DNA from: Aetokthonos hydrillicola CCALA 1050
GTDB lineage: Bacteria > Cyanobacteriota > Cyanobacteriia > Cyanobacteriales > Nostocaceae
Length of the DNA stretch: 24,000 nt
Assembly: GCF_017591665.1 (NCBI RefSeq)
Contig: NZ_JAAKGC010000002.1
Coordinates: forward strand, 126,487-150,486
Reading direction: 5' to 3'
Position 1 is the first letter of the stretch, and each line of letters opens with the position of its first letter. The position numbers and the translations under genes are program-made. Below, in pieces: positions 780-20,661 of the stretch. The notes under the pieces were generated by a model that did not search any database, was not told the origin of the DNA, and was given only the letters and a program-made list of their open reading frames with translations.

Positions 780-1170
780 TCGGGACATGATGCGATCGCG
801 TTCTGTGCTAAGCTATCTCAACGGACAGGTAAAACCTATCGTTTACCAAGTGAAGCAGAGTGGGAATATGCTTGTTGTGCTGGGATAACTACCCCGTTTT
901 ATTTTGGCGAGACGATTACTACTGATTTAGCGAATTATAACGGTGACTGTATTGGTCTATTTTTATTATTAAAAATTTACAATACTTATCCAAAAGGCGT
1001 TTACCGCCAGCAAACAACCGAAGTAGGAAAATTTCCACCAAATGCTTGCGGTTTATATGATATGCATGGTAATGTATGGGGACGTTGTTAAGATACCTGG
1101 TATTATAAATATCAAGGTGCGTCAGATGACAGCGGTGCATGGATGAACGATACTAATAATAATTATTAAT
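780..1170 (+). pseudogene. Decayed fragment of an FGE-sulfatase (SUMF1/EgtB/PvdO-type, C-type-lectin fold) domain gene; third paralogous copy
   Basis: Nucleotide-level similarity to about 10300-10661 and 3565-3920 (translated DAIAFCAKLSQRTGKTYRLPSEAEWEYAC...GVYRQQTTEVGKFPPNACGLYDMHGN). It lacks the N-terminal half and the C-terminal end. It carries a ~24-nt longer replacement around 949-990 and a premature TAA at 1089-1091 (WEWCQD became WGRC*). Confidence 0.8.
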
Positions 1171-3038: not shown

Positions 3039-4061
3039 TTGTTGTTAAGCTTTATGACAGAACAGCCAAAACTCGCTGTTGAGGTGCTAGATAGTTTCGG
3101 TCATTTACTAGAAAACCAAAAAAGAAGCACTCCACAGACTAGAAAATTAACTCGCCGACAGTTTATCAAAGGGGTTGGTTTTGCTAGTGCAGGATTGCTA
3201 GGAGTAATAACGCTGCAGCGAGTGTTTCAGGAGAATCTGCAGCAGTTTGAATTTCAGGTAGTGAAGGTGGATGCAACAGGAAAAATTATCAAGAGCAACA
3301 CTAGTAGCGCAAATTTCTTTACTGAAGATTTGGGCAATGGTGTCACTTTGGATATGGTGGAAATTCCTGGGGGTAAGTTTGTTATGGGTTCCCCGTCAAC
3401 AGAAAAGGATAGATCTGATTCTGAACGTCCACAGCACAATGTTACAATTAAACCTTTTTATATAGGCAAGTTTACCATTACCCAACAGCAATATCAGGCA
3501 GTTATGGGGAAAAATCCCTCCAACTTCAAAGGAGAAAAACGACCTGTTGAACAAGTAAGCTGGGATGATGCGATCGCGTTCTGTGATAAACTATCTCAAA
3601 GGACAGGTAAAACCTATCGGCTACCAAGTGAAGCTGAGTGGGAATATGCTTGTCGTGCTCTTACAACTACCCCGTTTTATTTTGGTGAGACAATTACTAC
3701 GGATTTAGCGAATTATTACGGTAGCTCAACTTATGCATCTGAACCAAAAGGCGTTTACCGTCAGCAAACAACCGAAGTAGGAAAATTTCCACCAAACGCT
3801 TGGGGTTTATATGATATGCATGGTAATATATGGGAGTGGTGTCAAGATACCTGGCATGATAGCTATGAAGGTGCGCCGGTTGACGGCACTGCATGGGTGA
3901 GCGATGATAAAAATAATACACTACATCTGCTGCGGGGTGGTGCTTGGAACAACGTTCCGAGAATATGCCGAACAATAGATCGCGATTGGTTCGCGCGCGA
4001 CTACTCGGACAGCAATGTAGGTTTTCGCGTGGTTGCGGTTAGTGCAGCCAGGACTGTTTAG
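3039..4061 (+). CDS. Standalone FGE-sulfatase-domain protein with Tat-like signal/anchor; paralog of the C-terminal module of the 956-aa protein
   Basis: 340-aa ORF. RLPSEAEWEYACR, GLYDMHGNIWEWCQD and LLRGGAW...GFRVV are typical of PF03781/CLec-fold domains. TRRQFIKGVGFASAGLLGV fits the twin-arginine consensus (S/T-R-R-x-F-L-K plus a hydrophobic stretch). The start is either TTG 3039 or ATG 3054, and an in-frame TGA lies at 2970-2972. Confidence 0.8.
   Translation: MLLSFMTEQPKLAVEVLDSFGHLLENQKRSTPQTRKLTRRQFIKGVGFASAGLLGVITLQRVFQENLQQFEFQVVKVDATGKIIKSNTSSANFFTEDLGNGVTLDMVEIPGGKFVMGSPSTEKDRSDSERPQHNVTIKPFYIGKFTITQQQYQAVMGKNPSNFKGEKRPVEQVSWDDAIAFCDKLSQRTGKTYRLPSEAEWEYACRALTTTPFYFGETITTDLANYYGSSTYASEPKGVYRQQTTEVGKFPPNAWGLYDMHGNIWEWCQDTWHDSYEGAPVDGTAWVSDDKNNTLHLLRGGAWNNVPRICRTIDRDWFARDYSDSNVGFRVVAVSAARTV
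3927..4061 (+). other. VR-like hypervariable 3' end of the standalone paralog
   Basis: It corresponds to 10670-10804. In the 24 codons between W and GFR, 14 differ from the other copy, mostly in codon positions 1-2. This copy keeps more AAC/AAT codons (aac aac ... aat). Confidence 0.6.
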
Positions 4062-4184: not shown

Positions 4185-4547
4185 GCGATCGCTCCCAACA
4201 TAGATATTCGTGGTAAAATACAGCAAGCTGACCTCAAACGCTCAGCAAAAAGTCTCAATCCTGACGGATGGCGACGAGTTAACAACAGCCCGAATCCTTT
4301 TAAAAGCTTGCAGCGCTACTTGGGAGTAATACCGTTTCTTTATGAAGCTGCATTTATGAACCCCCCGGCTGCGCCGTCCCCCCTTACCAAGGGGGGACTA
4401 CAGGGGGGTAAAGTTATGTGCGTCTTCATATAAAATTGGGAGTAGCACCAGAGCAAGGGGAAAAAGCTGTTTCGGTGATTGGGTTTTGAAGAGAAACAGA
4501 CAGAAGATTGCGGAAAATTGTATGCTCAGCTTGTATTAAGGCTTGAA
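4185..4547. repeat. Left copy of a 198-bp direct repeat (4185-4299 + 4465-4547), interrupted by a 165-bp insertion
   Basis: gcgatcgctcccaacatagatattcgtggt.aaatacagcaagctgacctcaaacg... and ...agctgtttcggtgattgggttttgaa.agaaacagacagaagattgcggaaaa...cttgtattaaggcttgaa recur, near-identical, at 15983-16180. Confidence 0.9.
4329..4435. mobile_element. MITE-like palindromic element (copy A), possibly flanked by a 9-bp duplication TTGGGAGTA
   Basis: Imperfect terminal inverted repeats (tttatgaagctgcat / atgtgcgtcttcata) and a G/C palindromic core (ccccttaccaagggg). ttgggagta occurs at 4320-4328 and 4436-4444. The element is absent from the other copy of the 198-bp repeat. A related element lies at 5583-5688. 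Confidence 0.6.
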
Positions 4548-4570
4548 CGTTAGTAAATTTTCCTATCTTC

Positions 4571-5563
4571 ATGAAACCCGCGAAAAAAATATTAATGTTA
4601 TCAGCAAATCCTAAGAACACAAATCCTTTACGCTTAGGGGAAGAAGCACGGAAAATTCAAGAAGCGTTGAAACTAGCTAAACATCGAGATGAGTTTGAAA
4701 TTGCGACTTCTTGGGCAGTACGAGTAGAAGATTTACGCCGTGCAATGATAGACTATCAACCGAATATCATTCATTTTTCCGGACATGGAGTGGGAGCAGA
4801 GGGTTTGGCATTTGAAGATAATTCTGGGATGACGCAGTTGGTGAGCAGCGAGGCTATAGCAAGTTTATTTGAATTGTTTCGTGGAACAGTTGAGTGTGTC
4901 CTACTTAACGCCTGCTATAGCGAAGTTCAAGCACAAGCAATTCACCAGCACGTTGATCACGTAATTGGGATGAATCAGTCAATTGGGGACGTAGCTGGAA
5001 TTGAATTTACTATTGGCTTTTATGATGCTTTGGGTGCTGGAGAAAGCTATGACTATGCTTTTAGGATGGGGTGTAATGCTATTCAGCTAAAAGCTAGCCA
5101 GGAAAATTCAACACCAGTCATTAAATCTAGACCATCTTCTGTTTCTGTTAAAAAAGCTGTAAAATCCGATGTTATGTCTGAAAAAAAATCACAACAAAAA
5201 TCCAGTGAGGGAATTGTCTTTAACATTAGCGGTGCTAAAATAGGCGGTGGGATACAAGCTGTACAGGGTGATAACAATCTACAAAGCATGACTAACTATG
5301 CAGCTATTGAACAAAAGTTAAATCTTGCAGAAGTTGCAAAAGAAATTCAACAACTTTTGCAAAAAATAGAAAATTCAAATCCTGCCACAACGAGATTAGA
5401 AAAACTAATGATTGTTACTAAAGCTGTTGAACACATTGAAAATAATTCAGCCTTGAAAGCGCGTGTATTAGAATTAATCAACGCAGATAGAAAAGAAGCT
5501 TTAAAAAAAGAAATTAACCACCCGTTAGCAAAGATTGTACTAGAATCTATAGAAGATTTGTAA
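4571..5563 (+). CDS. Caspase/CHAT-like protease-fold protein (predicted effector) with a Ser/Lys-rich linker and helical C-terminus
   Basis: 330-aa ORF. The N-terminal ~170 aa carry the His...Cys arrangement of clan-CD peptidases: NIIHFSGHG (H68/H72), then ~40 residues later VLLNACYS (C115). This is the widespread cyanobacterial ILxLxANP...RL..E.R.I...L N-terminal module. It is the first gene of a co-directional cluster. Confidence 0.6.
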   Translation: MKPAKKILMLSANPKNTNPLRLGEEARKIQEALKLAKHRDEFEIATSWAVRVEDLRRAMIDYQPNIIHFSGHGVGAEGLAFEDNSGMTQLVSSEAIASLFELFRGTVECVLLNACYSEVQAQAIHQHVDHVIGMNQSIGDVAGIEFTIGFYDALGAGESYDYAFRMGCNAIQLKASQENSTPVIKSRPSSVSVKKAVKSDVMSEKKSQQKSSEGIVFNISGAKIGGGIQAVQGDNNLQSMTNYAAIEQKLNLAEVAKEIQQLLQKIENSNPATTRLEKLMIVTKAVEHIENNSALKARVLELINADRKEALKKEINHPLAKIVLESIEDL

Positions 5564-5820: not shown

Positions 5821-6960
5821 ATGAGTAACAATTTACCCCCTGAAGATAATTTACCACTCATTAAAGACTCAAATATTGAATTCCAGGCAAAAAATTCCAC
5901 AATTGATGGTGGAGTAAAAGTTATTCAGGGGAACGACAATATCCAGATTCACCAGGTTGTTGTTGGAAAGGTCACCTTTGAAAGTAGTATTCGGAAGCAT
6001 GTAAAACGACCTCGTTCTGAACAGGAACCTCCCTCTCTGCTGCCATATTTAGTAAATAGAAAAGAACAGGAAGAGGAGTTAGAAAACGCAGTTAAACTGT
6101 TGTTGAAACAAGTCCATCCTCGCCCTCTAGTTTGCATTATTCATGGTAGCGAATTTCAAGGTCATTATCAATTTTTAAAGCGGTTGCAAAAATCCTTTCT
6201 GCCAAGATTTTTAAAATTAGATCCAACCCAGAAGGTACAGGAATACTGTCTCGAGTGGCCGACTGGATTAAAAAATTTAGATCTACTGAAGGATCGGTTA
6301 TGCAAAAATCTAGTAACCAAAGTTCTAGGTCATGATTTTGATTGTCCGGAAGAAATTAATGCTACTTTAAAAGAAATAAATGCAAGCTTCTGCAAATACC
6401 CTAGTCCAATTGTCATTGATACTCATATACGTACTCAAGACTGGCAGCAGCAAGGATTTGAAATATTAAATAAACTGTTGGAGTTTTGGGACAATTGGCC
6501 TGATCTTATTCCAGGACAGAGACTCATAGTCTGTGTATTTATTAAATACACTATCTATCTGCACAAACATACTGAAGAATTTTCGTTTCCACGGATTTTC
6601 AATTGCTTGCCCAGTTTGTACAAGCGGCATTACTATCAAAGTATAAATAAAAAGATTTCAAAAGTACTTAATAAATCAAAAAATAAACATTTTAATCGCT
6701 TATCGTATACTATCTTGTCAGAATTGAAAAATATTAACATAATGCATGTTGAACACTGGGTACGCGATAAAGAAACGAAACAGTTTGTTGGTGAGGAGAA
6801 GACTCAGAAACTGATTAATGACGTAACACTTATGTTTAATCATTGGGGAAAGGACACAATTCCTATGGATGATTTAGCTGATGAGTTAACTCGCCTACTA
6901 AAGTCACTAAAAGTTACTAATTATACTCATGATAAGAAAAAGCCTAATAGGAGCAAATAG
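5821..6960 (+). CDS. Hypothetical protein; possible inactive STAND-like / vWA-MoxR-associated adaptor
   Basis: 379-aa ORF. LPYLVNRKEQEEELENAV...RPLVCIIHGSEFQGHYQFLKRL sits where a STAND NTPase would have its Walker A, but no GxxxxGK[ST] is present. It ends 2 nt before the AAA+ gene, with an AGGAG 10 nt upstream of that start. The family assignment is inference only. Confidence 0.35.
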   Translation: MSNNLPPEDNLPLIKDSNIEFQAKNSTIDGGVKVIQGNDNIQIHQVVVGKVTFESSIRKHVKRPRSEQEPPSLLPYLVNRKEQEEELENAVKLLLKQVHPRPLVCIIHGSEFQGHYQFLKRLQKSFLPRFLKLDPTQKVQEYCLEWPTGLKNLDLLKDRLCKNLVTKVLGHDFDCPEEINATLKEINASFCKYPSPIVIDTHIRTQDWQQQGFEILNKLLEFWDNWPDLIPGQRLIVCVFIKYTIYLHKHTEEFSFPRIFNCLPSLYKRHYYQSINKKISKVLNKSKNKHFNRLSYTILSELKNINIMHVEHWVRDKETKQFVGEEKTQKLINDVTLMFNHWGKDTIPMDDLADELTRLLKSLKVTNYTHDKKKPNRSK

Positions 6961-6962
6961 AT

Positions 6963-7949
6963 ATGAAATTTCCATTCTACAGAGGTGATGGAACTCGACA
7001 GCAGTATGAATCGCCAGCAAAACTACCTATCTCTAGGCGTTCTCTACTACTGAAGCCAGAATATTACATTGCTGATCTAGGACTTAAAGATGCTTGTAAT
7101 GTAGCCCTCTTATTGGGACAACCCCTTCTGCTTACGGGAGAACCCGGAACTGGAAAGACTCAATTTGCCTACAGTCTTGCATGGGAACTTGGTTTCGATC
7201 CACCATTAAAGTTTGAAACTAAGTCTACTAGTACCGCTCGGGATCTTTTCTATACCTATGATGCATTGAAACGTTTCCAAGATGCCCAAAGCGGTGTTTT
7301 ATCAAGCCCCTTGGATTATATCACCTACCAAGCTCTGGGGCTGGCGATTTTACTAACCCGAGATCCGGCTGAGGTTGAGCAAATCTTACCATCAAATTTC
7401 GCACATCCTGGCAAAGTACGCTCTGTTATTTTAATTGATGAAATTGATAAAGCTCCTCGTGACTTCCCAAATGATCTGCTCAATGAACTGGAACACATGT
7501 ATTTTCGTATTCCAGAGTTAGGAAATAAAATAATTGAAACTGATCCAGCACTCCAACCCATTGTAATTATTACCAGCAATACTGAAAAGGATTTGCCAGA
7601 TGCCTTTCTACGGCGTTGCATTTATTATGATATTCCCTTCCCAGAGCATGAGAGACTTGCAGAAATTATTGCCAACCGCCTTGGACTTTATAATGGTAGC
7701 AGCAATCCATTTTTACAAGATGCTCTTGACTTATTTTATCAATTACGTTCCCCTCAAAGTGGTTTAAGGAAAAAACCTGCAACAGCTGAACTATTAGGTT
7801 GGCTCTTGGCTCTAAAAACCGTTGCTGGTGATACACCTAATCCCTTAGATAAATTAGATCTGGTTCAAGCTACCCTCAGTAGCTTAGTCAAAACTTCCGA
7901 AGATCAAGAAAAAGCTAGACAACTTGTAAAGCAATGGATGCTGCAATAG
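6963..7949 (+). CDS. MoxR-like AAA+ ATPase (AAA_5-type)
   Basis: 328-aa ORF with Walker A LLLTGEPGTGKT, Walker B VILIDEIDKA and sensor region IVIITSNTEKDLPDAFLRRC. It overlaps the downstream gene by 16 nt. Confidence 0.8.
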   Translation: MKFPFYRGDGTRQQYESPAKLPISRRSLLLKPEYYIADLGLKDACNVALLLGQPLLLTGEPGTGKTQFAYSLAWELGFDPPLKFETKSTSTARDLFYTYDALKRFQDAQSGVLSSPLDYITYQALGLAILLTRDPAEVEQILPSNFAHPGKVRSVILIDEIDKAPRDFPNDLLNELEHMYFRIPELGNKIIETDPALQPIVIITSNTEKDLPDAFLRRCIYYDIPFPEHERLAEIIANRLGLYNGSSNPFLQDALDLFYQLRSPQSGLRKKPATAELLGWLLALKTVAGDTPNPLDKLDLVQATLSSLVKTSEDQEKARQLVKQWMLQ

Positions 7950-10804
7950 AAATAAATATCCCTGACTGGTTAAATCGCAATGTTCTAACCGATTTTATTG
8001 ATGAACTCAGAGATGCAGGCTATAACATTGGCATTGCTCAGTATATTGCAGCTTATGATTTAATCTTAGCACTAACGGCTCAGGGTGAACCCTTGAATAA
8101 ACCAGAGCGTCTCAAAACTCTGCTTGGACCAATCTTTTGTAGTTCACCAGCTGAGCAGGAAGATTTTCAGCAACGCTTTGACCGTTGGGTTGAGTTGGTT
8201 TGTCAAACTGGTCGCGCAACGGAGGGAGCAGATGTAAAAGCTCAAGCATTATCAGAAGAATTAGGAAAGATCGAAAGGCGTTTGCCTCAGTTAAATAGAA
8301 GACTTATTCTAATTGCTCTAACAGGAATCATTCTACCCTTGTTCTTGGAACAGTCTATAAAAGATGAGAGTACTAGGCCAAAACAACCTTCTGCGAAACA
8401 ACCTTCCGCAAAACAACCTTCTACAACACAACCTTCTACAACACAACCTTCTACAACACAACCTTCTACAACACAACCTTCTACAACATTTGTAACGCCA
8501 CGCAATCGAGACTTTCCACAGGATTGGCAGATATATTTGTTCTCTTTTTTGCTTACTTCTGGTATTATTTTTATAGTGTGGCGTTTATGGTGGTTATGGC
8601 GTGCTCGCCTGTTCTTACAGCGTCATGGAACTACGAAACAGCCTGAGCTATATAAGATTGCTTTCCGTGAATTTGAGCAAAACTTATTCCCTACAATTAT
8701 ATTGATACATGCTGCTCAGAGTTTAAGGTATCGAATCCGTATCCCATCCGATGAACTTGATATTGATAAAACCATTGATGCAACTTTTCGCCAAGGAGGA
8801 TGGCTGACACCAGTATACGGTATTCGTCAAGTTCTTCCCGAGTATCTGTTTCTTATTGATCGTGCTAGCTACTCTGATCATCAGGCTAAATTTATAGAAG
8901 AGATGGTTGAGCGCCTTAAACACAATGGAGTTTTTATCACAAGCTATTTCTTTGATGATGATCCGCGAATTTGCTTTCCTAGTGATGGTATAAGCTCTCC
9001 ACAGAAACTTAACGAAATAGCAGCAAAATTTGCTCAACATCGCCTTGTTATCGTCTCAGATATAGAGAAGCTATTTAGTTCTCAAACTGGTGAGCTAGAA
9101 TCTTGGGTGAGTCAAATGACAAGCTGGGAGCATAGAGCTATTTTAACCCCAAAACCTTTCGAAAGTTGGGGATATCAAGAGTTAGAACTCGCACGCCAGT
9201 TTATTGTTTTACCCGCAACTCCTCAAGGGGTGCGATCGCTTAGCCAAGTTTTACATCACGGATCTGCAACCTACGTTCTCTCTGAAAAAGACCAAAATCC
9301 TCTACCGGAAACGTTGCGTACTCAACCCCATTACTGGATTGAGCGCAACCCGCCAAAACCTGAGCAGATCAATACAATGTTAAACTCATTGCAGGAATAT
9401 CTCGGCGAAGACGGTTTTTACTGGCTCAGCGCTTGTGCTGTTTTTCCGGAGTTACATTGGAACATTACAATCTATCTGGGTAATGCTCTCAAAACAGAGG
9501 ACAGTCAAAGTCTTTTGGAGGTTTGTTCACTAACTAATCTGGCTCGCTTACCCTGGTTTCGTTATGGTTACATACCAGATTGGTTGCGTTCTCGTCTCAT
9601 TGCAACCCTTACATACGAACAGAAGCATACAATCCGCACTGCACTTCAAGATTTACTCATCACTGCTGTTCAGGGATCTGTAGGTAGACAGCAATTAGAA
9701 GTTGCACAAAAGCATCACAGTTTTCTACCTAAACTTGCTAATTCGATACTTTCCCTGTTATCTAGAAGAGCGACTGAAGGTAGTCCATTACGAGACTACT
9801 TGTTTTTAAGCTTTATGACGGGACAGCCAAAACTCGCTGTTGAGGTGCTAGATACTTTCAGTCATTTACTACAAAAGCCACAAAGAATCACTCGGCGACA
9901 GTTTATCAAATGGGCTGGTTTTGTTAGTGCAGGATTCGTAGGAGCAATAGCGCTGCAGCAACTGTTTCAGGAGAATCTGCAGCAGTTTGAATTTCCGGTA
10001 GTGAAGGTGGATGCAACAGGAAAAATTACCAACCGCACGAATAAACAAGCAAATTTCTTTACTGAAGATTTGGGTAATGGTGTGACTTTAGATATGGTAG
10101 AAATTCCTGGGGGTAAGTTTGTTATGGGTTCCCCGTCAACAGAAAAGGATAGATCTGATTCTGAAGGTCCACAGCACAATGTGACGATTAAACGTTTTTT
10201 CATGGGCAAGTTTACCATTACCCAGCAGCAATATCAGGCAGTTATGGGGAAAAATCCCTCGAACTTCAAAGGAGAAAAACGACCTGTTGAAGGAGTAAGT
10301 TGGGATGATGCGATCGCTTTCTGTGCTAAACTATCTCAAAGGACAGGTAAAACCTATCGGCTACCAAGTGAAGCTGAGTGGGAATATGCTTGTCGTGGTT
10401 GGACTACTACGCCGTTTTATTTTGGTGAGACGATTACAACGGATTTAGCAAATTATAACGGTGACTATACTTATGCATCTGAACCAAAAGGCGTTTACCG
10501 TCAGCAAACAACCGAAGTAGGAAAATTTCCACCAAACGCTTGCGGTTTATATGATATGCATGGTAATATATGGGAGTGGTGTCAAGATACCTGGCATGAT
10601 AACTACCAAGGTGCGCCAGATGACGGCACTGCATGGGTGAGCGATAATAATGTTAATAATTCTCGACGTCTGCTGCGTGGCGGTTCGTGGGTCAACGATC
10701 CGAGGTTCTGTCGTTCGGCGTTTCGCGTCAGGCTCGCGCGCGCCTTCTCGAACGACCTTGTGGGTTTTCGCGTGGTCGTGGTTGGTGCAGCCAGGACTCA
10801 TTAG
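7934..10804 (+). CDS. Membrane protein: CoxE-like N-domain, TM hairpin with PST repeat, vWA-like domain (degenerate MIDAS), Tat-like anchor, FGE-sulfatase/CLec domain carrying a DGR variable region
   Basis: 956-aa ORF. The N-terminus FIDELRDAGYNIG...EDFQQRFDRWV and the middle ELDIDKTIDATFRQGG...EYLFLIDRASYSD...VFITSYFFDDD are collinear with CoxE-type vWA proteins (PF05762) as I remember them. Hydrophobic segments are LILIALTGIILPLFL, IYLFSFLLTSGIIFIVWRLWWLW and WAGFVSAGFVGAIAL (the last preceded by TRRQFIK). The C-terminus has RLPSEAEWEYACR, GLYDMHGNIWEWCQD and LLRGGSW...GFRVV. Confidence 0.75.
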   Translation: MDAAIEINIPDWLNRNVLTDFIDELRDAGYNIGIAQYIAAYDLILALTAQGEPLNKPERLKTLLGPIFCSSPAEQEDFQQRFDRWVELVCQTGRATEGADVKAQALSEELGKIERRLPQLNRRLILIALTGIILPLFLEQSIKDESTRPKQPSAKQPSAKQPSTTQPSTTQPSTTQPSTTQPSTTFVTPRNRDFPQDWQIYLFSFLLTSGIIFIVWRLWWLWRARLFLQRHGTTKQPELYKIAFREFEQNLFPTIILIHAAQSLRYRIRIPSDELDIDKTIDATFRQGGWLTPVYGIRQVLPEYLFLIDRASYSDHQAKFIEEMVERLKHNGVFITSYFFDDDPRICFPSDGISSPQKLNEIAAKFAQHRLVIVSDIEKLFSSQTGELESWVSQMTSWEHRAILTPKPFESWGYQELELARQFIVLPATPQGVRSLSQVLHHGSATYVLSEKDQNPLPETLRTQPHYWIERNPPKPEQINTMLNSLQEYLGEDGFYWLSACAVFPELHWNITIYLGNALKTEDSQSLLEVCSLTNLARLPWFRYGYIPDWLRSRLIATLTYEQKHTIRTALQDLLITAVQGSVGRQQLEVAQKHHSFLPKLANSILSLLSRRATEGSPLRDYLFLSFMTGQPKLAVEVLDTFSHLLQKPQRITRRQFIKWAGFVSAGFVGAIALQQLFQENLQQFEFPVVKVDATGKITNRTNKQANFFTEDLGNGVTLDMVEIPGGKFVMGSPSTEKDRSDSEGPQHNVTIKRFFMGKFTITQQQYQAVMGKNPSNFKGEKRPVEGVSWDDAIAFCAKLSQRTGKTYRLPSEAEWEYACRGWTTTPFYFGETITTDLANYNGDYTYASEPKGVYRQQTTEVGKFPPNACGLYDMHGNIWEWCQDTWHDNYQGAPDDGTAWVSDNNVNNSRRLLRGGSWVNDPRFCRSAFRVRLARAFSNDLVGFRVVVVGAARTH
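8381..8485 (+). repeat. In-frame 15-nt tandem repeat, 7 units, encoding (KQPSA)2-KQPST-(TQPST)4
   Basis: Units aaacaaccttctgcg / aaacaaccttccgca / aaacaaccttctaca / acacaaccttctaca x4, read directly. It lies between the first two hydrophobic segments of the 956-aa protein. Confidence 0.95.
10670..10804 (+). other. DGR variable region (VR) at the 3' end of the 956-aa gene
   Basis: Its 5' 18 nt (ctgctgcgtggcggttcg) are repeated exactly at 12427-12444 just after the RT gene. The segment is the only strongly divergent part between two otherwise ~85-90% identical paralogs. It occupies the canonical LLRGGSW...GFRV position of CLec-fold DGR targets, and avd and RT are immediately downstream. Confidence 0.7.
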
Positions 10805-10855: not shown

Positions 10856-10882
10856 TCCGCCGCAGGCGGATCGATTTTTTTT
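10856..10882 (+). terminator. Hairpin plus T-run downstream of VR (intrinsic terminator; possibly also the DGR target-site hairpin)
   Basis: tccgcc-gca-ggcgga (6-bp GC-rich stem, 3-nt loop) at 10856-10870, followed by tcga and tttttttt (10875-10882). Confidence 0.6.
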
Positions 10883-10894
10883 GAGTTTTTTAAG

Positions 10895-11091
10895 ATGAGC
10901 GATTTGCCTATTATACAGAAAACCTACGATTTGATCAAGTGGTATGTCCCAATTTTAAACCGCGTGCCGAGAGAACATAAATTTTTATTGGCAAACCGGA
11001 TGATTACAGGACTGTACGATATTCGGGATGCTCTGATCGTAGCACGGTATTCCACCAAAGACAAGTTAGCTCAGTTAGAATCTTTGAAGAA
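10895..11091 (+). pseudogene. avd: DGR accessory variability determinant (Avd), 3'-truncated
   Basis: MSDLPIIQKTYDLIKWYVPILNRVPREHKFLLANRMITGLYDIRDALIVARYSTKDKLAQLESL matches the N-terminal half of cyanobacterial Avd proteins as I recall them. From 11092 the frame runs into a GAATTCAGGAGTCA-repeat hairpin element and ends at 11173. No second half of avd follows before the RT start. ATG 10895 is preferred over the listed 10817 start, which lies upstream of the terminator. Confidence 0.6.
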
Positions 11092-11310
11092 GAATTCAGG
11101 AGTCAGAATTCAGGAGTCAGAACAAGAGCGTAAGGGATTCGATTCAAACCTGCCACTAATTGCAGACCGCTAAATCTTCTCCTATCGGAGACGCTACGCG
11201 TAGCTTGCTTCCCCAAAGGGGTACGATTTAGCCGGGGTCTTAAGCCCCTTAACTCATCTGCCAGTCGTACAGAATTCATGCGCTCATTCTGACTCCTGAT
11301 TCCTGAGTTC
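11092..11310. mobile_element. ORF-less hairpin element with inverted heptamer-repeat arms, replacing the 3' half of avd
   Basis: The left arm is (gaattcaggagtca)x2 at 11092-11119. The right arm ttctgactcctgattcctgagttc at 11287-11310 is its imperfect reverse complement. The interior contains further palindromes (gctaaatc...gatttagc). Confidence 0.55.
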
Positions 11311-11329
11311 TATTTAATAAGACAACAGC

Positions 11330-12391
11330 ATGAAACGACATGGTAATCTGTGGAAGGACGTTATCGCGTTTGAGAATTTACTAACAGCTAGCCGGAAAGC
11401 ACAACGGGGCAAACGTTTTCGAGACAATGTTCTGTCGTTCAATTACAATCTAGAGAAAGAGCTATTTCAACTACAAGCAGAATTACAGTCAAAAACATAC
11501 AATCCCGGTTTATATACAACATTTCGGATTTTTGAACCAAAGCCACGTCTGATTTCTGCTGCTCCTTATCGCGATAGAGTAGTACATCACGCTCTTTGCA
11601 ACATTATTGCTCCTATTTTTGAAAGAACATTCATTCATGATTCCTACGCTAACCGCGTTGGTTTTGGCAGTCACCGCGCGTTACGTCGTTTTACAAGCTT
11701 TGCGCGCTCAAGTCGCTACATTCTGCAATGCGATATTCGCAAATATTTTCCCAGCATCGACCATGAAATTTTAAGGTCACTGGTACGCCGTAAAATCAAA
11801 TGCCGTGATACACTCTGGCTAATCGACAATATTATTGATGCAAGTAACCCTCAAGAACCAGTTATCGATTACTTCCCTGGTGATGATTTACTTATGCCTT
11901 TGGAACGACGAAGAGGCTTGCCAATTGGTAATTTAACCAGCCAATTCTTTGCGAATGTATACCTTAACAGTTTAGATCATTTTGTTAAAGAACAAATCAA
12001 AGCGACCAAATATGTTCGCTACGTTGATGATTTTGCTTTGTTTTCAGATGACCGAGAATTTTTAGAAAACGCAAGACGAGAAATCGAAGAACACCTTGCT
12101 AGTCTGAGGCTCAAGCTTCATCCTGTTAAGAGCCAATTATTTCAGACAAAACACGGTGCCAATTTTGTTGGTTTTCGCATCTTACCAAATCGGATTCGAG
12201 TAAGGAACGATAATCTGCGTCTCGCAAGGCGAAGATTACGAAAGATGGTTTTAGACTATAGAGAGGGCAAAATTACCCAACAGGAAGTATCTCAGTCAAT
12301 TCGGAGTTGGATTGGTCACTTAAAACATGGAGATACTTGGCGATTGCGCCAGGAAATATTTAGTTCTCTCGTGTTTTCAAAAAAACCCTAA
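11330..12391 (+). CDS. DGR-type reverse transcriptase
   Basis: 353-aa intact ORF beginning MKRHGNLW. It has the RT motifs [26 protein letters not shown] (the [I/L]GxxxSQ motif typical of DGR RTs) and the catalytic [11 protein letters not shown]. Confidence 0.85.
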
Positions 12392-12426
12392 TATGTTATC
12401 CTCAACTGTGGGGTAGGCAATACCGA

Positions 12427-12444
12427 CTGCTGCGTGGCGGTTCG
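12427..12444 (+). other. 5' stub of the DGR template repeat (TR)
   Basis: An 18-nt exact match to the start of VR (10670-10687), located 36 nt after the RT stop. The match stops at the edge of the inserted cassette (12445). A tgg that would continue the match follows the cassette at 12881-12883. Confidence 0.55.
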
Positions 12445-12880
12445 AATTCAGTTATCAGTTATCAGTTATCAGTTATCAGTCGATTATGAATAGTTTAGTT
12501 TATGAGAAAGCGTATAAATTTGCCATTCGCATTGTAAACGCATACAAATATCTTTCTGAAGAGAAGAAAGAATATATTTTATCAAAGCAATTAATTAGAA
12601 GCGGAACCTCAATTGGAGCTAATATCGCTGAAGCTAATGGAGCAATATCTCAAGCAGATTTTTGCTGCAAAATTTCTATTGCTTATAAAGAATGCTTGGA
12701 AACGAAATATTGGCTTTCTTTGTTAAAAGATACAGCATACATTGAGCAGAAAGCATTTGATAGCATTTATGAAGATGCAGATGAAATAGGAAAAATTCTA
12801 TTTTCAATCCTTAAAAAAACAAAAATTAAACAACAATCAATAGAATGATAACTGATAACTGATAACTGATAACTGATAAG
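12445..12880. mobile_element. IVS-like cassette: four-helix-bundle gene flanked by inverted heptamer arrays, inserted in the TR
   Basis: (cagttat)x4 at 12449-12476 and (gataact)x4 at 12847-12874 are reverse complements of each other. The interior is visibly more AT-rich than the flanks. Like the element in avd, it starts with gaattcag. Confidence 0.65.
12486..12848 (+). CDS. Four helix bundle protein (23S rRNA intervening-sequence protein / Avd superfamily)
   Basis: 120-aa ORF. LIRSGTSIGANIAEANGAISQADFCCKISIAYKECLETKYWLSLL is the hallmark of the TIGR02436/PF05635 family. Confidence 0.8.
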   Translation: MNSLVYEKAYKFAIRIVNAYKYLSEEKKEYILSKQLIRSGTSIGANIAEANGAISQADFCCKISIAYKECLETKYWLSLLKDTAYIEQKAFDSIYEDADEIGKILFSILKKTKIKQQSIE

Positions 12881-12976
12881 TGGGGTTGGAAACAATCTTC
12901 GAAAATAAAACTGAGTCGGATAGCTTAGTAGGCTGCAAAGTCGAACGGTTTGTCTGACTTATTGAAGTTTATAGGT

Positions 12977-13937: not shown

Positions 13938-14528
13938 TCATAACTTTTCACTTTCATGTTGTTCAGGAAGTGCAATACGTCCATGATAGTCATGATAACG
14001 ATGCGAAAAGTGTTCTAAATATGGACATTCAAGAACTGTGCGTCGTCTAGCAGTATGCTGACTGATTTGGTGATACAAAAATCCGGCATCTATTGCAAAA
14101 ACTTTTTTGAAATCTACTGTTAATTCTGGTAACCCTTCCTGACTTAATTCGCAATTTGAAGGTACTTTTTCAAAGAAATGAAATTGCTGATGACGGTTAG
14201 ATTTCACCAAGTTCCAATCAGATGAGTTTATCCGCAGAGTTTTATCATAACGAATATCTTGCGCTGTATAAACTTCACAAAGAATGACTGAATTTAACAA
14301 TTTATATATTTTATCTTGATTTTGCCTAGCTGTATAATCCCAATCTAAATCGCAATCTTGCGTCACAATAATTGCGTAAGGATGAATTATCGGTCGAAAC
14401 TGGGTTTTATCTAGCTCTGGAGATGATTCGTCAGGAACAGGTCTAAACTGTATTACTCCCGTTAAAATTTCTCCCTGCCTAAGAGCCTCTTTTTCATCCG
14501 AGGCTCGATAAATCAAACTTTTGGGCAT
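13938..14528 (-). CDS. Hypothetical protein (third gene of an AT-rich operon)
   Basis: 196-aa ORF, 8 nt after the upstream gene. It is Cys/His/Asp-rich (HPYAIIVTQDCDLDWDY, ECPYLEHFSHRYHDYHGR). I recognise no family. Confidence 0.5.
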   Translation of the reverse strand: MPKSLIYRASDEKEALRQGEILTGVIQFRPVPDESSPELDKTQFRPIIHPYAIIVTQDCDLDWDYTARQNQDKIYKLLNSVILCEVYTAQDIRYDKTLRINSSDWNLVKSNRHQQFHFFEKVPSNCELSQEGLPELTVDFKKVFAIDAGFLYHQISQHTARRRTVLECPYLEHFSHRYHDYHGRIALPEQHESEKL

Positions 14529-14536
14529 GATGAAAG

Positions 14537-14944
14537 CTATTCAAAATTAAGAATTAAAGGTGGTCTGACTTCTGTTGGTAACACGCTATTAGTAATAACT
14601 TCTAAATTTTGGGGTAAGCTAGTTTGTTGCAAATCAGAGGTACTATCCTTATAGTATTCCACCATGCTTTCAAGGGCTTCCGATGCTTCTTGTAAGCCTT
14701 CTGTTTTAGAATTCCCAAAAAGAATACTAATTAAAGTTAAACATTTGATTAATAGAACGCTGTTTTGATGTACTTGGTTTGTCAATTCGTCAGCGAAAGG
14801 TGATTCTATCGAAAATGTAATTTTTAAATTGGATATATTAGGCGATAAAGTTTGCCAATTATGTGTTTGGGCAGGGGTTGATATTAGTTCGTACCTTTGC
14901 CCGATTATATGATTACTTTGAGTTACACCAGTTATTCTTTGCAT
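14537..14944 (-). CDS. Hypothetical protein (second gene of an AT-rich operon)
   Basis: 135-aa ORF, 4 nt after the upstream gene. I recognise no family. Confidence 0.45.
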   Translation of the reverse strand: MQRITGVTQSNHIIGQRYELISTPAQTHNWQTLSPNISNLKITFSIESPFADELTNQVHQNSVLLIKCLTLISILFGNSKTEGLQEASEALESMVEYYKDSTSDLQQTSLPQNLEVITNSVLPTEVRPPLILNFE

Positions 14945-14948
14945 ATAT

Positions 14949-15734
14949 CTATATAGTTTGAGGTCGCATTGTGTTGTGTAATTCTTCTGTGATACTCCAG
15001 CGAAAAAGATTTCTGGCTACACGATTTGCTTTGTCGAATGTATTCCAGACATTTTCACCTTTTTCTATCTTTTGTTCTGTAAAAAAATCAGCATCTAACA
15101 AATAAGATGTTTCATCAAGATTTTTTTCTATATCTCTGACTTGAACAAGTCCATGATTAAAATTGACCTGACCAAATTCGGTTCGTAATTGTAAATTTTT
15201 AAGTAAATTTATTATTGATTCTTCTAGCTCTGGAGTATATAGCTCATACGCGATATGTTTAGGGATTAATTCAATCCATTTTTTGTTGGTAATGTTCAGT
15301 TTTGACCTAATAATTAAATCCCGATATCTTAAACCTATTCTTGAATAAAAAGATGGATTATATATTTGCTCAAAAATTTCTACAGCATATTTGAATCTTC
15401 CAATGAATTTTTCATATCTTTCATATTTATTAGTCACAAGTGTGATAGAGTTTTTATCTACAGAAATCTGCCAACTTAAATCTTCTGATTTAAATTGATA
15501 CATTAAATCACTAGCAATACTTGAATTAAATTGGGTTAAAACATTTGACAACTCAACTGGTACTTGCAAGTTTTTAGAAGCTTCAAAAATAGGGTATTCA
15601 AATCTTAACCTATCTTGAAAATCTACAGGTTCTTGACTTGTAATTTTCAAAATAGTTGGAAATCTAATCTGAGCAATCACCTCGATTAGAGGATTATACT
15701 CATAAATAACTCTTTCATAATCTGGGAGCTTCAT
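14949..15734 (-). CDS. Hypothetical protein, possibly TIGR04255 family (first gene of an AT-rich operon)
   Basis: 261-aa ORF. The N-terminus YEYNPLIEVIAQIRFPTILKI...FQDRLRFEYP resembles the conserved start of the uncharacterised TIGR04255 family as I recall it. Confidence 0.5.
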   Translation of the reverse strand: MKLPDYERVIYEYNPLIEVIAQIRFPTILKITSQEPVDFQDRLRFEYPIFEASKNLQVPVELSNVLTQFNSSIASDLMYQFKSEDLSWQISVDKNSITLVTNKYERYEKFIGRFKYAVEIFEQIYNPSFYSRIGLRYRDLIIRSKLNITNKKWIELIPKHIAYELYTPELEESIINLLKNLQLRTEFGQVNFNHGLVQVRDIEKNLDETSYLLDADFFTEQKIEKGENVWNTFDKANRVARNLFRWSITEELHNTMRPQTI

Positions 15735-15982: not shown

Positions 15983-16180
15983 GCGATCGCTCCCAACATA
16001 GATATTCGTGGTCAAATACAGCAAGCTGACCTCAAACGAGCAGCAAAAAGTCTCAATCGTGACTGATGGGGACGAGTTAACAACAGCATAAATCCTTAGC
16101 TGTTTCGGTGATTGGGTTTTGAACAGAAACAGACAGAAGATTGCGGAAAATAGTCTAGCCAGCTTGTATTAAGGCTTGAA
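15983..16180. repeat. Right copy of the 198-bp direct repeat
   Basis: Near-identical to 4185-4299 + 4465-4547. It lies just downstream of the mutS stop. In one frame it ends a start-less open frame ...FPPDLLGAIAPNIDIRGQIQQADLKRAAKSLNRD*. Confidence 0.9.
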
Positions 16181-16252
16181 AGTCAAAGGACTTGAAAGGT
16201 TTGTTGTTGTGCTTGAGTGCGCTAAAGCGCAACTACGAACGAACGAGTACAA

Positions 16253-18880: not shown

Positions 18881-19486
18881 TTATTTCATGGAAGTGTCAA
18901 TTATTTGTACGAGTGTTCTAAAAAGTCGGTCACAGTGAAGTGACGCTTTGCGGACTTGATCAGCATTCAAGCTTGCCAAAAGCAGTGAAGCATGTTTTAT
19001 TTTGTGATACTCACCTTTAGAAGTGTTACAAGTAGCAGCTTTCAGTTTTTTGTTTAAAATATCTTTATCAAGACTCTCCACATCTTGACTTCTCTTAATT
19101 GCATTTTCTTTGAACCCTTGACCATAAAACTTTCTAAGAGTTTCAATGTCAGCAATAAACCATGCTTCCATAACTTGAACCATTAAGTGACAATGAATAT
19201 CATCAACATCTGGTAAATCCCAATTATCCCTCGACTTTAAATGCTCCCAAGGAGACAATTTAACTGGAGCTTCAGCATCTACAAGCAACAAGTTAAAGGC
19301 ATCTTGGTGAGATTTTAAAGCATTTTTAAAGTCCCGAAAAGCGTCATTACGCTTACCGCACATAGTAATGTTTATTCGTCGCTCGCGTGATACTTGTAGA
19401 AATTTATGAAATCCTTCCCGAAGTTTAGCTTTTGACTCTTTACCATCACCACCACCTTCAATATAAATACGGATCTCCTTTACCAT
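18881..19486 (-). CDS. DUF4276-family protein (Toprim-like predicted nuclease partner of the upstream ATPase)
   Basis: 201-aa ORF. IRIYIEGGGDGK..., LLVDAE and MEAWFIAD are the conserved acidic motifs of DUF4276 as I recall them. Its start overlaps the ATPase stop by 7 nt. Confidence 0.6.
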   Translation of the reverse strand: MVKEIRIYIEGGGDGKESKAKLREGFHKFLQVSRERRINITMCGKRNDAFRDFKNALKSHQDAFNLLLVDAEAPVKLSPWEHLKSRDNWDLPDVDDIHCHLMVQVMEAWFIADIETLRKFYGQGFKENAIKRSQDVESLDKDILNKKLKAATCNTSKGEYHKIKHASLLLASLNADQVRKASLHCDRLFRTLVQIIDTSMK

Positions 19487-20661
19487 CGGGTTCCTCCAAT
19501 TTCACCCATCCGCCAGAGATCTCCTAGAGTATAATTTTCTAGCCAGTCTTTCAATTTTTCAGGATCAAGACGACGTAAATGGCTTCCTTGTTCATCTCGC
19601 TCAAATACCAGCACAGCTTCAGGGGGGAGCGAAGAAACTAAAGCATCAGAATGAGTTGTTACAATCAGCTGTGTCCTCTGAGATGCTTCAATTAGCATCT
19701 CAGCAATCGTGGGGAGAATATCTGGATGTAAACCGATTTCTGGTTCTTCAATACAAATAAGTGGTGGTGGTGTTGGATCTAGAAGTAAAGCCATTAAAAA
19801 TAAATAACGGAGAGTACCATCAGATAAACGAGTTGCGGGAATAGGTTGTGCAAGATTTTCTTCACGAATAAATATTTGTACTGTACCACCATAGATTTTT
19901 ATACTTAATTCTTCTGCTGCATCATAAAATTTCTTAAGTTTTTCTATGATTTGTCTATTGCCTAGTTGATATTGTAAGTTATTTAAAAATAAACCTAAGT
20001 TACTACCGTTTTCTAGAAGAGGATGCTCTGGCAAGTCTGTTTTTTGAGGATTTCTAGGTTCTGAGTCTCGCCCAATATTCCAAATTCTATATAAACTAAT
20101 ATTAGAAAATTGAGTTGCTAAATATGAAAGTTCCGGATACAAATCGGGATCTTTTCTTTGCGATAGAACTGATTGATCAGGAATCATGTCCTCACGGCGG
20201 AGTTCTCTTTGTTTCACCACACCGTCTAGTTTTACATTTAAAACAGGACGACCACGTTGATAACGATAGTAAAAATAAACATCATCTTCACCAGGAAATG
20301 GTTGTTCATTTTCCACAAATTCGTCTATCAACTCTAATTTTTGACCAGCCATAGATAAGCTAATTTGATAGCTTAGTGTCTGTATTCTGGGATAGTCTAC
20401 AATAGCTTGTATTTCTGCTACAGTGTTACTATGTTGACCTTTCCACAAAAATTCACTAATCCCTCCCGCTTGACGAATAAACGCAGGTAAATCTGTAGGT
20501 GTTGCTTTAAGAAGCGCGATCGCCTCAATTAAATTAGATTTGCCGGATGCATTTGAACCAATTAATATATTCAAAGGTCGCAGTTCAATTTCTTCTCCCT
20601 CACTTCCGTAGGAAAGGAAGTTTTCTAATCGTAAGCGACGGATAAAGGTTTTTCCGTTCAA
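19480..20661 (-). CDS. ABC-type (AAA_15/AAA_21-like) ATPase
   Basis: 393-aa ORF with Walker A ILIGSNASGKSNL, signature-like LSDGTLRYLFL, Walker B/D-loop LICIEEPEIGLHPD and H-loop VTTHS. It has a TTG start with AAGGAGA 6-7 nt upstream. Confidence 0.8.
   Translation of the reverse strand: MNGKTFIRRLRLENFLSYGSEGEEIELRPLNILIGSNASGKSNLIEAIALLKATPTDLPAFIRQAGGISEFLWKGQHSNTVAEIQAIVDYPRIQTLSYQISLSMAGQKLELIDEFVENEQPFPGEDDVYFYYRYQRGRPVLNVKLDGVVKQRELRREDMIPDQSVLSQRKDPDLYPELSYLATQFSNISLYRIWNIGRDSEPRNPQKTDLPEHPLLENGSNLGLFLNNLQYQLGNRQIIEKLKKFYDAAEELSIKIYGGTVQIFIREENLAQPIPATRLSDGTLRYLFLMALLLDPTPPPLICIEEPEIGLHPDILPTIAEMLIEASQRTQLIVTTHSDALVSSLPPEAVLVFERDEQGSHLRRLDPEKLKDWLENYTLGDLWRMGEIGGTRW

Follow-up and report, generated by a model that had tools for sequence, protein, structure and literature searches.

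Cyanobacterial diversity-generating retroelements (DGRs) of reverse transcriptase (RT) clade 5E are known to diversify the FGE-sulfatase/C-type lectin (CLec) sensors of MoxR-vWA ternary conflict systems, including those of the iSTAND subtype (PMC7159879; PMC7517822; PMC10907252), and for the iSTAND variant an FGS (FGE-sulfatase) effector and linkage to DGRs have been described (PMC7159879; PMC10907252). Here we report on the remnant of such a DGR in Aetokthonos hydrillicola CCALA 1050, contained in a 24,000-nt stretch of contig NZ_JAAKGC010000002.1 (the window, within which all coordinates are counted). In this locus, the gene for a 956-aa target protein ends in a variable repeat (VR), designated VR-A, and is followed by a truncated avd gene, an intact RT gene and a stump of a template repeat (TR). 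It is a degenerate member of the described class, i.e. a system of a known kind which here is probably defunct.

[quoted passage not shown] It differs from them in that the window copy lacks the body of the TR, hairpin H1 of the structured RNA described below and half of avd, and in that its target has no vWA domain by Pfam, although the target of a remote VR (L086, see below) has a VWA_CoxE domain. Degenerate DGR loci have been reported for Thiohalocapsa PB-PSB1, in which the TR or RT is replaced by arrays of repeats resembling miniature inverted-repeat transposable elements (MITEs) (PMC10907252). As in that organism, stem-loop repeat elements have replaced DGR components and complete and degenerate loci are found in one genome; however, the replacing element in the window encodes an Avd-like intervening sequence protein (IVP), and its closest relatives stand beside DGR parts in several cyanobacterial genera. 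The prototype DGR of Bordetella phage BPP-1 is similar in that a VR at the C-terminus is rewritten from a TR by mutagenic retrohoming directed at adenines, in its pair of Avd and RT, and in having a structured RNA 3' of the TR, which in BPP-1 is required for cDNA synthesis, but its gene order is mtd-avd-TR-brt instead of the target-avd-RT-TR-structured RNA of the family to which the window belongs.

This family was represented by 80 cyanobacterial loci whose RTs are 65–81% identical to the window RT. Self-comparison of the loci revealed repeat pairs of 120–135 nt, with mismatches almost all at adenines of one copy. This copy, the TR, lies 25–60 nt after the RT stop codon, while the VR ends a target gene upstream of avd, giving the family order target(VR)-avd-RT-TR. 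With an nhmmer profile of these TRs, a complete TR and its 3' flank were found after the RT in ~70 of the 80 loci. The RNA of this flank is structured, folding into three hairpins (H1, H2 and H3), and 29 of its 40 predicted pairs show compensatory changes among 26 sequences. Rfam gave no family match anywhere in the window, including the part of this RNA retained there. About 70 dispersed copies of a transcribed non-coding RNA element, DGR1, were described in Nodularia by Voss et al. 2013 (PMC3610870).

VR-A and its remote siblings

The C-terminus of the target had been predicted, by comparison with a short FGE-sulfatase paralog in the window, to be a DGR variable region; the corresponding segment of the paralog is designated VR-B. 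As stated in the original prediction, 14 of the 24 residues between a conserved W (10688–10690) and GFRV differ between the two copies. At the DNA level, 27 differences are found in these 72 nt (10691–10762; 37%) versus 61 in the 756 aligned nt upstream (8%; Fisher p = 1.3e-10), and in 22 of the 27 one copy has adenine. It was also correctly stated that 10 of the 14 variable codons keep their third base, but the changes are not restricted to the first two codon positions: the differences number 10, 9 and 8 at positions 1, 2 and 3, so that the pattern is linked to adenine and not strictly to codon positions. The core of VR-A is depleted in adenine (11% versus 30% in the remaining gene), and compared with the consensus of the related TRs it differs at 18 of 25 adenine sites versus 11 of 47 others (p = 1e-4).

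Two features of the flanks noted earlier were also found again. The first 18 nt of the segment, CTGCTGCGTGGCGGTTCG, occur exactly twice in the window, at 10670–10687 and after the RT gene at 12427–12444 (none expected from 100 shuffles); the match extends to 20 of 21 nt, the sole mismatch being an A in the copy after the RT and a T in the VR, and this copy is now identified as the stump of the TR. The GC hairpin, TCCGCCGCAGGCGGA followed by a run of T, is situated 55 nt after VR-A, and an equivalent hairpin with both arms changed is present in related loci and beside the remote VRs described below. As for the DGR cis-elements at the 3' end of a VR, i.e. the initiation of mutagenic homing (IMH) site, which is slightly different in VR and TR, with a hairpin downstream, the hairpin is thus present and conserved, while the locus has no TR 3' end with which IMH and IMH* could be compared.

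The assignment of the domain to the FGE-sulfatase/CLec scaffold used by DGR targets also proved sound. The residues LLRGGSW, CRSAFR and VGFRV of the target align with the VR of TvpA from Treponema denticola (E = 6.9e-28), a DGR variable protein of solved structure (PDB 2Y3C). TvpA likewise adopts a CLec fold of the FGE type and carries its VR at the extreme C-terminus, but it is a stand-alone lipoprotein, whereas the domain in the window is fused to a membrane-associated module of ~700 aa in a conflict operon. Where structures of DGR proteins with a CLec fold have been solved, the binding site is made up of the variable residues, which are exposed to solvent (PMC6328139).

A pattern search with the VR 3' end was made in metagenome contigs, a collection that holds only part of the assembly. 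It returned two remote VRs (L085 and L086) and no TR; the VRs of the window itself were not returned. The two encoded proteins match A. hydrillicola proteins exactly and are located on other contigs of this genome. L085 closes a 574-aa PNP_UDP-FGE fusion protein, and L086 closes a 907-aa vWA-FGE protein, with VWA_CoxE identified by Pfam, in a second PNP/iSTAND-like/MoxR operon. Neither is adjoined by avd or an RT gene, and the two genes are only 59–70% identical to the target of the window in the 300 nt upstream of the VR. Nevertheless, VR-A, L085 and L086 have in common the VR scaffold, the region of the stop codon, a pyrimidine tract and the hairpin. L086 is followed by a MITE of the same type as the insert that cuts avd in the window.

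Among these three VRs, 22 of 90 columns vary, comprising 19 of the 25 TR-adenine positions, i.e. those with adenine in at least 60% of the related TRs, versus 3 of the 65 others (p = 1.5e-11). Two of the three exceptions are adjacent and would fit an AAG codon in the TR of this lineage. Variation confined in this way is expected if one TR writes several VRs, and it allows the lost TR to be reconstructed, giving TGGAACAACAATCCGAGGAACTGTCGTTCGGCGTATCGCAACAGGAACGCGCGCGACAACAAGAACAACAATGTGGGTTTTCGCGTGGTC with the scaffold TGGAACAACAATCCGAGG..CTGTCGTTCGGCGTATCGC... The missing TR would accordingly be the template of VR-A and the two remote VRs. The best proof that the locus is a DGR is provided by the remote VRs and not by VR-B, the paralog on which the original comparison was based.

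An ordinary divergence of paralogs, under relaxed or positive selection on a surface loop and without any retroelement, would account for one part of the contrast between VR-A and VR-B: in VR-B, ~8 changes found in this copy only, mostly to A, affect non-adenine positions, and VR-B is not depleted in adenine, so that this part is not of the DGR type. As an explanation for the whole it is hardly credible and is already contradicted for VR-A, since i) 37% divergence in 72 nt stands against 8% in the flanking 756 nt, ii) the changes in VR-A track the adenine positions of related TRs, iii) three VRs share one scaffold and vary almost only at adenine sites in genes otherwise 59–70% identical, and iv) an RT gene, an avd remnant and a TR stump adjoin. 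The segment is therefore a DGR variable region on a conflict-system sensor, as had been proposed, supported by the adjoining RT, the sibling VRs and the adenine-site variation; VR-A is a variable repeat written by a DGR.

Replacement of the template repeat

Of the DGR components in the window (Table 1), the RT is complete and carries both the (I/L)GxxxSQ and the YxDD motifs of DGR-clade RTs, and the RT loci of its relatives hold TR/VR pairs. The avd gene is not complete. The bAvd match of the ORF at 10895–11173 covers profile positions 3–58 of 107 with 33 bits, below the 40-bit cut-off, and ~64 of roughly 115 residues are left. In the relatives the stop codon of avd overlaps the start of the RT gene, whereas in the window residue ~64 is followed by ~235 nt bounded by imperfect inverted repeats.

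The original prediction had called for a search for an intact TR; in the window there is none, and all that was found is a 5' stump of ~30 nt with one mismatch (A/T). The only matches of the TR profile in the window are VR-A, VR-B and the stump (12412–12443, profile positions 2–30). VR-A and VR-B were also slid without gaps along both strands of the window, with mismatches counted only where the candidate TR has a base other than A; apart from the VRs matching each other, no placement exceeded chance. As no intact TR/VR pair is present, the locus is classified as a DGR remnant and not as a complete DGR; evidence for the pair comes indirectly from the three sibling VRs (19/25 versus 3/65).

The TR stump on one side and the retained distal RNA element (12886–12964), in which H3 still folds, on the other bracket the segment that was replaced. 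Between them the relatives have ~182 nt, consisting of the adenine-rich TR body and H1, whereas the window has a 441-nt cassette. The arms of this cassette pair to form a stem of ~31 bp around an ORF (RNA fold z = -6.7) encoding an IVP that is Avd-like, having also a weak match to Pfam bAvd (PF22296). The junction of stump and cassette is also found in a separately assembled contig from run SRR12347192 and is therefore not an artefact of one assembly. A resumption of the TR after the cassette (12884–12930), suspected by eye, was ruled out since the TR profile had no match there at maximum sensitivity; this sequence belongs to the distal 3' RNA element. The locus thus lacks the TR body once linked to its RT, together with H1 and half of avd.

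Table 1. Features of the window and the evidence for their assignment
Feature	Position	Strand	Evidence or remark
Third FGE-sulfatase copy, pseudogene	787–1167	+	Repeat families D1 and D2; in-frame stop; cut off just before the VR
Short FGE-sulfatase paralog, 340 aa	3039–4061	+	Tat-like N-terminus; bears VR-B (~3928–4052)
CHAT peptidase, upstream conflict-system gene	4571–5563	+	Pfam PF12770
iSTAND (inactive STAND)	5821–6960	+	Pfam PF19995, E = 3.2e-22
MoxR-like AAA+ ATPase	6963–7949	+	AAA_5 and AAA (PF07728/PF00004), E about 7e-10
Target gene, 956-aa protein WP_390691839.1	7934–10804	+	ORF; FGE-sulfatase PF03781, E = 2.8e-57; stop codon 10802–10804
Variable repeat VR-A	10670–10795	+	C-terminus of the target; 13 diversified codons within 10691–10762
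GC hairpin and T-run, terminator-like	10856–10880	+	55 nt after the VR; position conserved in related DGRs
avd remnant	10895–11092	+	Only residues 1 to ~64 homologous to the 112–116-aa Avd of relatives
MITE-like insert	11093–11329		Imperfect inverted repeats GAATTCAGGAGTCAGAA... / ...TTCTGACTCCTGA (I3, I6); replaces the C-terminal half of avd
DGR-type reverse transcriptase	11330–12391	+	Intact 353-aa ORF; RVT_1, E = 2.5e-23; IGNLTSQ and YVDD
TR stump	12412–12444	+	Conserved GGTAGGCAA leader and first ~21 nt of the TR (12424–12444)
IVP cassette, 441 nt	12445–12885	+	(CAGTTAT)4 and (ATAACTG)4 arms at 12448–12480 and 12846–12882
IVP ORF, 120-aa four-helix bundle	12486–12848	+	"23S rRNA IVP" PF05635, E = 1.5e-31, profile positions 3–105 of 106
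Retained distal DGR 3' structured RNA	12886–12964	+	H2 remnant and H3; nhmmer E = 3.4e-16, post-TR profile positions 75–150

Losses of this kind are also seen among the relatives: L037 has no TR but fragments of an IVP gene in (GAAGTCA)n arms, in L058 a deletion fuses RT codon ~296 to the end of the TR, in L062 a heptamer array stands in place of the TR, and in L075 the 5' part of the TR is missing. Judged from these loci, decay of the TR appears to be recurrent in cyanobacterial DGRs.

By analogy with the family, the system would have operated as follows: i) RNA from a TR of ~125 nt located 3' of the RT gene, together with the structured 3' domain (H1–H3), would have been copied into cDNA by RT-Avd, random bases being misincorporated where the RNA has adenine; ii) the cDNA would have replaced the VR, rewriting ~13 AAY-type codons; and iii) the same TR would have written remote VRs, at least two in number, located on other contigs of the genome. 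In the present locus the TR body and H1 (~182 nt) have been replaced by the 441-nt cassette and the C-terminal half of avd by the MITE-like insert, leaving of the DGR machinery only the RT ORF, the TR stump and H2/H3. The DGR would have served the putative ligand-binding CLec/FGE-sulfatase tip of a sensor in an iSTAND-MoxR ternary conflict system. We consider it likely that VR-A is a DGR VR on such a sensor, that its template has since been replaced, and that VR-A and its siblings are frozen snapshots of past diversification. With no template at the locus, these VRs can no longer be rewritten from it, and we infer that the freeze is complete. The hypervariable tail of the original prediction is thereby upheld for the past but not for the present, the TR body and half of avd being gone.

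A second DGR of the same RT family, apparently intact, was found in this genome on a 631-kb contig (L082), with an EAD1-CHAT-FGE target, a full Avd, an RT 76% identical to that of the window, and a TR. Compared with its own VR, this TR has 18 mismatches at adenine sites and none at other bases inside the repeat, with only 3 others at the 3' boundary. It was ruled out as a template acting in trans on the window, as its non-adenine mismatches number 28 to VR-A and 38 to VR-B and its 3' end is different.

These data bear on whether the DGR might still be active on VR-A, with an intact cognate TR and 3' RNA located elsewhere and used in trans by the window RT, Avd being supplied by the second DGR of the genome. 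The RT ORF is intact, including its catalytic and DGR-signature motifs, the remote VRs indicate that the system has already acted at a distance, L082 encodes an intact Avd, and an intact TR copy could lie in parts of the genome outside the searched collection. We nevertheless regard continued activity as improbable: L082, whose TR does not fit, is the only other same-family DGR found in the organism; a pattern search of the metagenome contigs, which hold only part of the assembly, with the exact scaffold of the cognate TR gave no hits; and in ~70 of the 80 relatives the TR directly follows the RT, which is exactly the position taken by the cassette here.

Several points weigh against a frozen system as preferred above. 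The cognate TR has never been seen, its sequence being deduced from three VRs and the relatives, and an intact duplicate may exist elsewhere in the genome, since the searched collection covers the assembly only in part. The RT ORF is still intact, which could point either to a very recent inactivation or to continued use of the RT. VR-A, like the 956-aa product as a whole, is identical in all available A. hydrillicola assemblies, but these all derive from one culture lineage and are therefore uninformative on variation in the population. Finally, the role of the target as the vWA component of a ternary system is a putative one, assigned from gene context only.

VR-B and the gene neighbourhood

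The two FGE-sulfatase copies align over their full length, with 79% identity in protein over 340 aa including the VR and 92% in DNA outside the VR. VR-B, used in the original comparison as if it were a second VR of the same template, turned out not to be one: its mismatches to the inferred TR comprise 12 at adenine sites and 16 at other sites, it is not depleted in adenine (31% A), and where it has changed shows no association with the adenine sites of related TRs (p = 0.45). The ~8 substitutions specific to VR-B, nearly all to adenine, are clustered at 3960–3980 (within 3945–4019), at non-adenine positions of the inferred TR, and this CGAACAATAGAT patch turns the conserved CRSA motif into CRTI. 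The cluster is unexplained by adenine-to-N mutagenesis. Homology to VR-A stops at the stop codon, so that VR-B lacks the downstream pyrimidine tract and hairpin; the 75 nt following it are unrelated to those following VR-A. VR-B as the TR of VR-A was ruled out by 11 non-adenine mismatches.

VR-B may be a sibling VR whose template was another TR that has since been lost, or a former VR that left the system and has drifted since the short paralog was duplicated without the downstream cis-elements; we give this explanation an even chance. It agrees with the diversified appearance of VR-B, in which 12 of the 25 adenine positions of related TRs have changed, with its 16 non-adenine mismatches to the TR deduced from VR-A, L085 and L086, and with the absence of the pyrimidine tract and hairpin. 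However, the non-adenine changes are packed into ~20 nt (3960–3980), where they alter CRSA, which exceeds what uniform drift at the 8% background would give, and no second TR was found. As a third candidate, the cluster may be a converted patch. A further FGE-sulfatase copy, the pseudogene that is cut off just before the VR (Table 1), lies directly upstream of a 555-aa ORF (1174–2841).

Domains were assigned to the ORFs of the window with Pfam profiles, which gave the order CHAT, iSTAND, AAA/AAA_5, FGE-sulfatase, bAvd and RVT_1 on the + strand. Judged from this gene content, the arrangement would be an iSTAND variant of the MoxR-vWA ternary conflict systems: the MoxR-like AAA+ ATPase and iSTAND are present, and the vWA component is undetected by Pfam, the 956-aa target having no vWA match even at E <= 1. 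In this target, the FGE-sulfatase (CLec-fold) domain occupies residues 720–948 at the C-terminus, and the N-terminal module contains hydrophobic stretches and has homologs bearing many other C-terminal domains. Ahead of the FGE domain, at residues ~652–675 (9880–9960), a twin-arginine translocation (Tat)-like RRQFIK motif is followed by a hydrophobic stretch; the same combination precedes the FGE domain of the short paralog (3140–3220), where it is N-terminal. Although the Pfam TAT_signal match of the target is weak (E = 0.08), these sequence features suggest that the variable domain may face the periplasm. In the N-terminal part of the target gene, seven tandem 15-nt units (8364–8503) encode a low-complexity linker of the (K/T)QPS(A/T) type.

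Direct repeats, 92% identical (4185–4299 and 4465–4550 versus 15983–16183), flank an 11.8-kb block within which lie the conflict operon and the DGR remnant, besides toxin-antitoxin-like genes and three ORFs without assigned role; the first copy is interrupted by a hairpin-rich insert of 165 nt. Judged by their placement, these repeats may be island boundaries. Three consecutive ORFs are located 3' of the DGR on the - strand (13938–15734), two of them (196 and 261 aa) without a Pfam match and the third of 135 aa, and beyond mutS there is a gene pair encoding 393 and 201 aa, also on the - strand (18881–20661). These ORFs and the gene pair could be further defence genes.

The IVP cassette in other genomes and the fate of the sensors

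Intervening sequences (IVSs) of 23S rRNA that encode PF05635 proteins are known. The cassette of the window resembles these in having a long stem-loop that encloses an ORF of ~120 aa for a four-helix bundle and in being inserted in a structured non-coding RNA, but it is hosted by a DGR template RNA, in the 3' domain, instead of by rRNA, and its stem is built from heptamer repeats. Its closest homologs, at least 84% identical in protein and 80–93% in DNA (compared with 79% at most in DNA for the nearest RTs), share these heptamer arms and stand against DGR parts in other genera: i) in Nodularia (L091–L094), an intact TR, or a VR, lies directly against the left arm; ii) in Aphanizomenon (L095–L097), the 3' end of the RT gene lies against the left arm, there is no TR, and H2–H3 follow the right arm; iii) in Kalymmatonema and a related assembly (L088, L089), a truncated RT gene or the stop codon of a VR gene is found at the arm, with H3 on the opposite side; iv) in Westiellopsis (L090), a VR remnant is followed by the cassette and then by H3; and v) in two metagenomic contigs (L084, L087), the cassette is likewise beside DGR parts. 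On the left side, the junction lies in every case at the outer edge of the arm, while the DGR position it meets differs each time, as if deletions had taken place next to the cassette.

No cassette is found with the RTs most closely related to that of the window, and the RT of Aphanizomenon shares only 72% identity with the window RT. Among the 80 relatives, L037 is the only one with an IVP gene beside the RT; other spacers between RT and TR hold unrelated inserts, namely an IS605-type OrfB, an extra target gene or AT-rich DNA. More distant IVP homologs are not linked to DGRs, being found either within a type I-D CRISPR-cas operon or beside genes that have a GUN4 domain at their end, so that the association holds only for the closest subclade. 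It is conceivable, though in our judgement doubtful, that the cassette is a DGR-associated mobile element, i.e. an IVS-like stem-loop with an Avd paralog, which settles in the structured RNA immediately 3' of the TR, in place of H1, and spreads between DGR loci and VR ends, possibly via recombination between TR and VR or via the DGR's own reverse transcription, and whose left-arm deletions recurrently switch off cyanobacterial DGRs. The recurrence of these closest contexts may instead reflect shared ancestry, and the link between cassette and DGR is a lead, not a result.

A role as antigen sensors has been proposed for the CLec sensors that DGRs diversify on the MoxR, iSTAND and VMAP conflict systems found in multicellular bacteria (PMC10907252). 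The A. hydrillicola locus is a natural knockout of the template, in which one local and two remote VRs would be frozen in different states, and the second, apparently intact DGR of the same genome provides an internal control. Population sequencing of A. hydrillicola could ask what becomes of a sensor repertoire after diversification stops, and how frequently DGRs are lost. If the presence of the IVP cassette beside TR, VR or RT ends in at least 5 other cyanobacterial genera is not just shared ancestry, it would point to an undescribed interaction between a small mobile element and a DGR template RNA.

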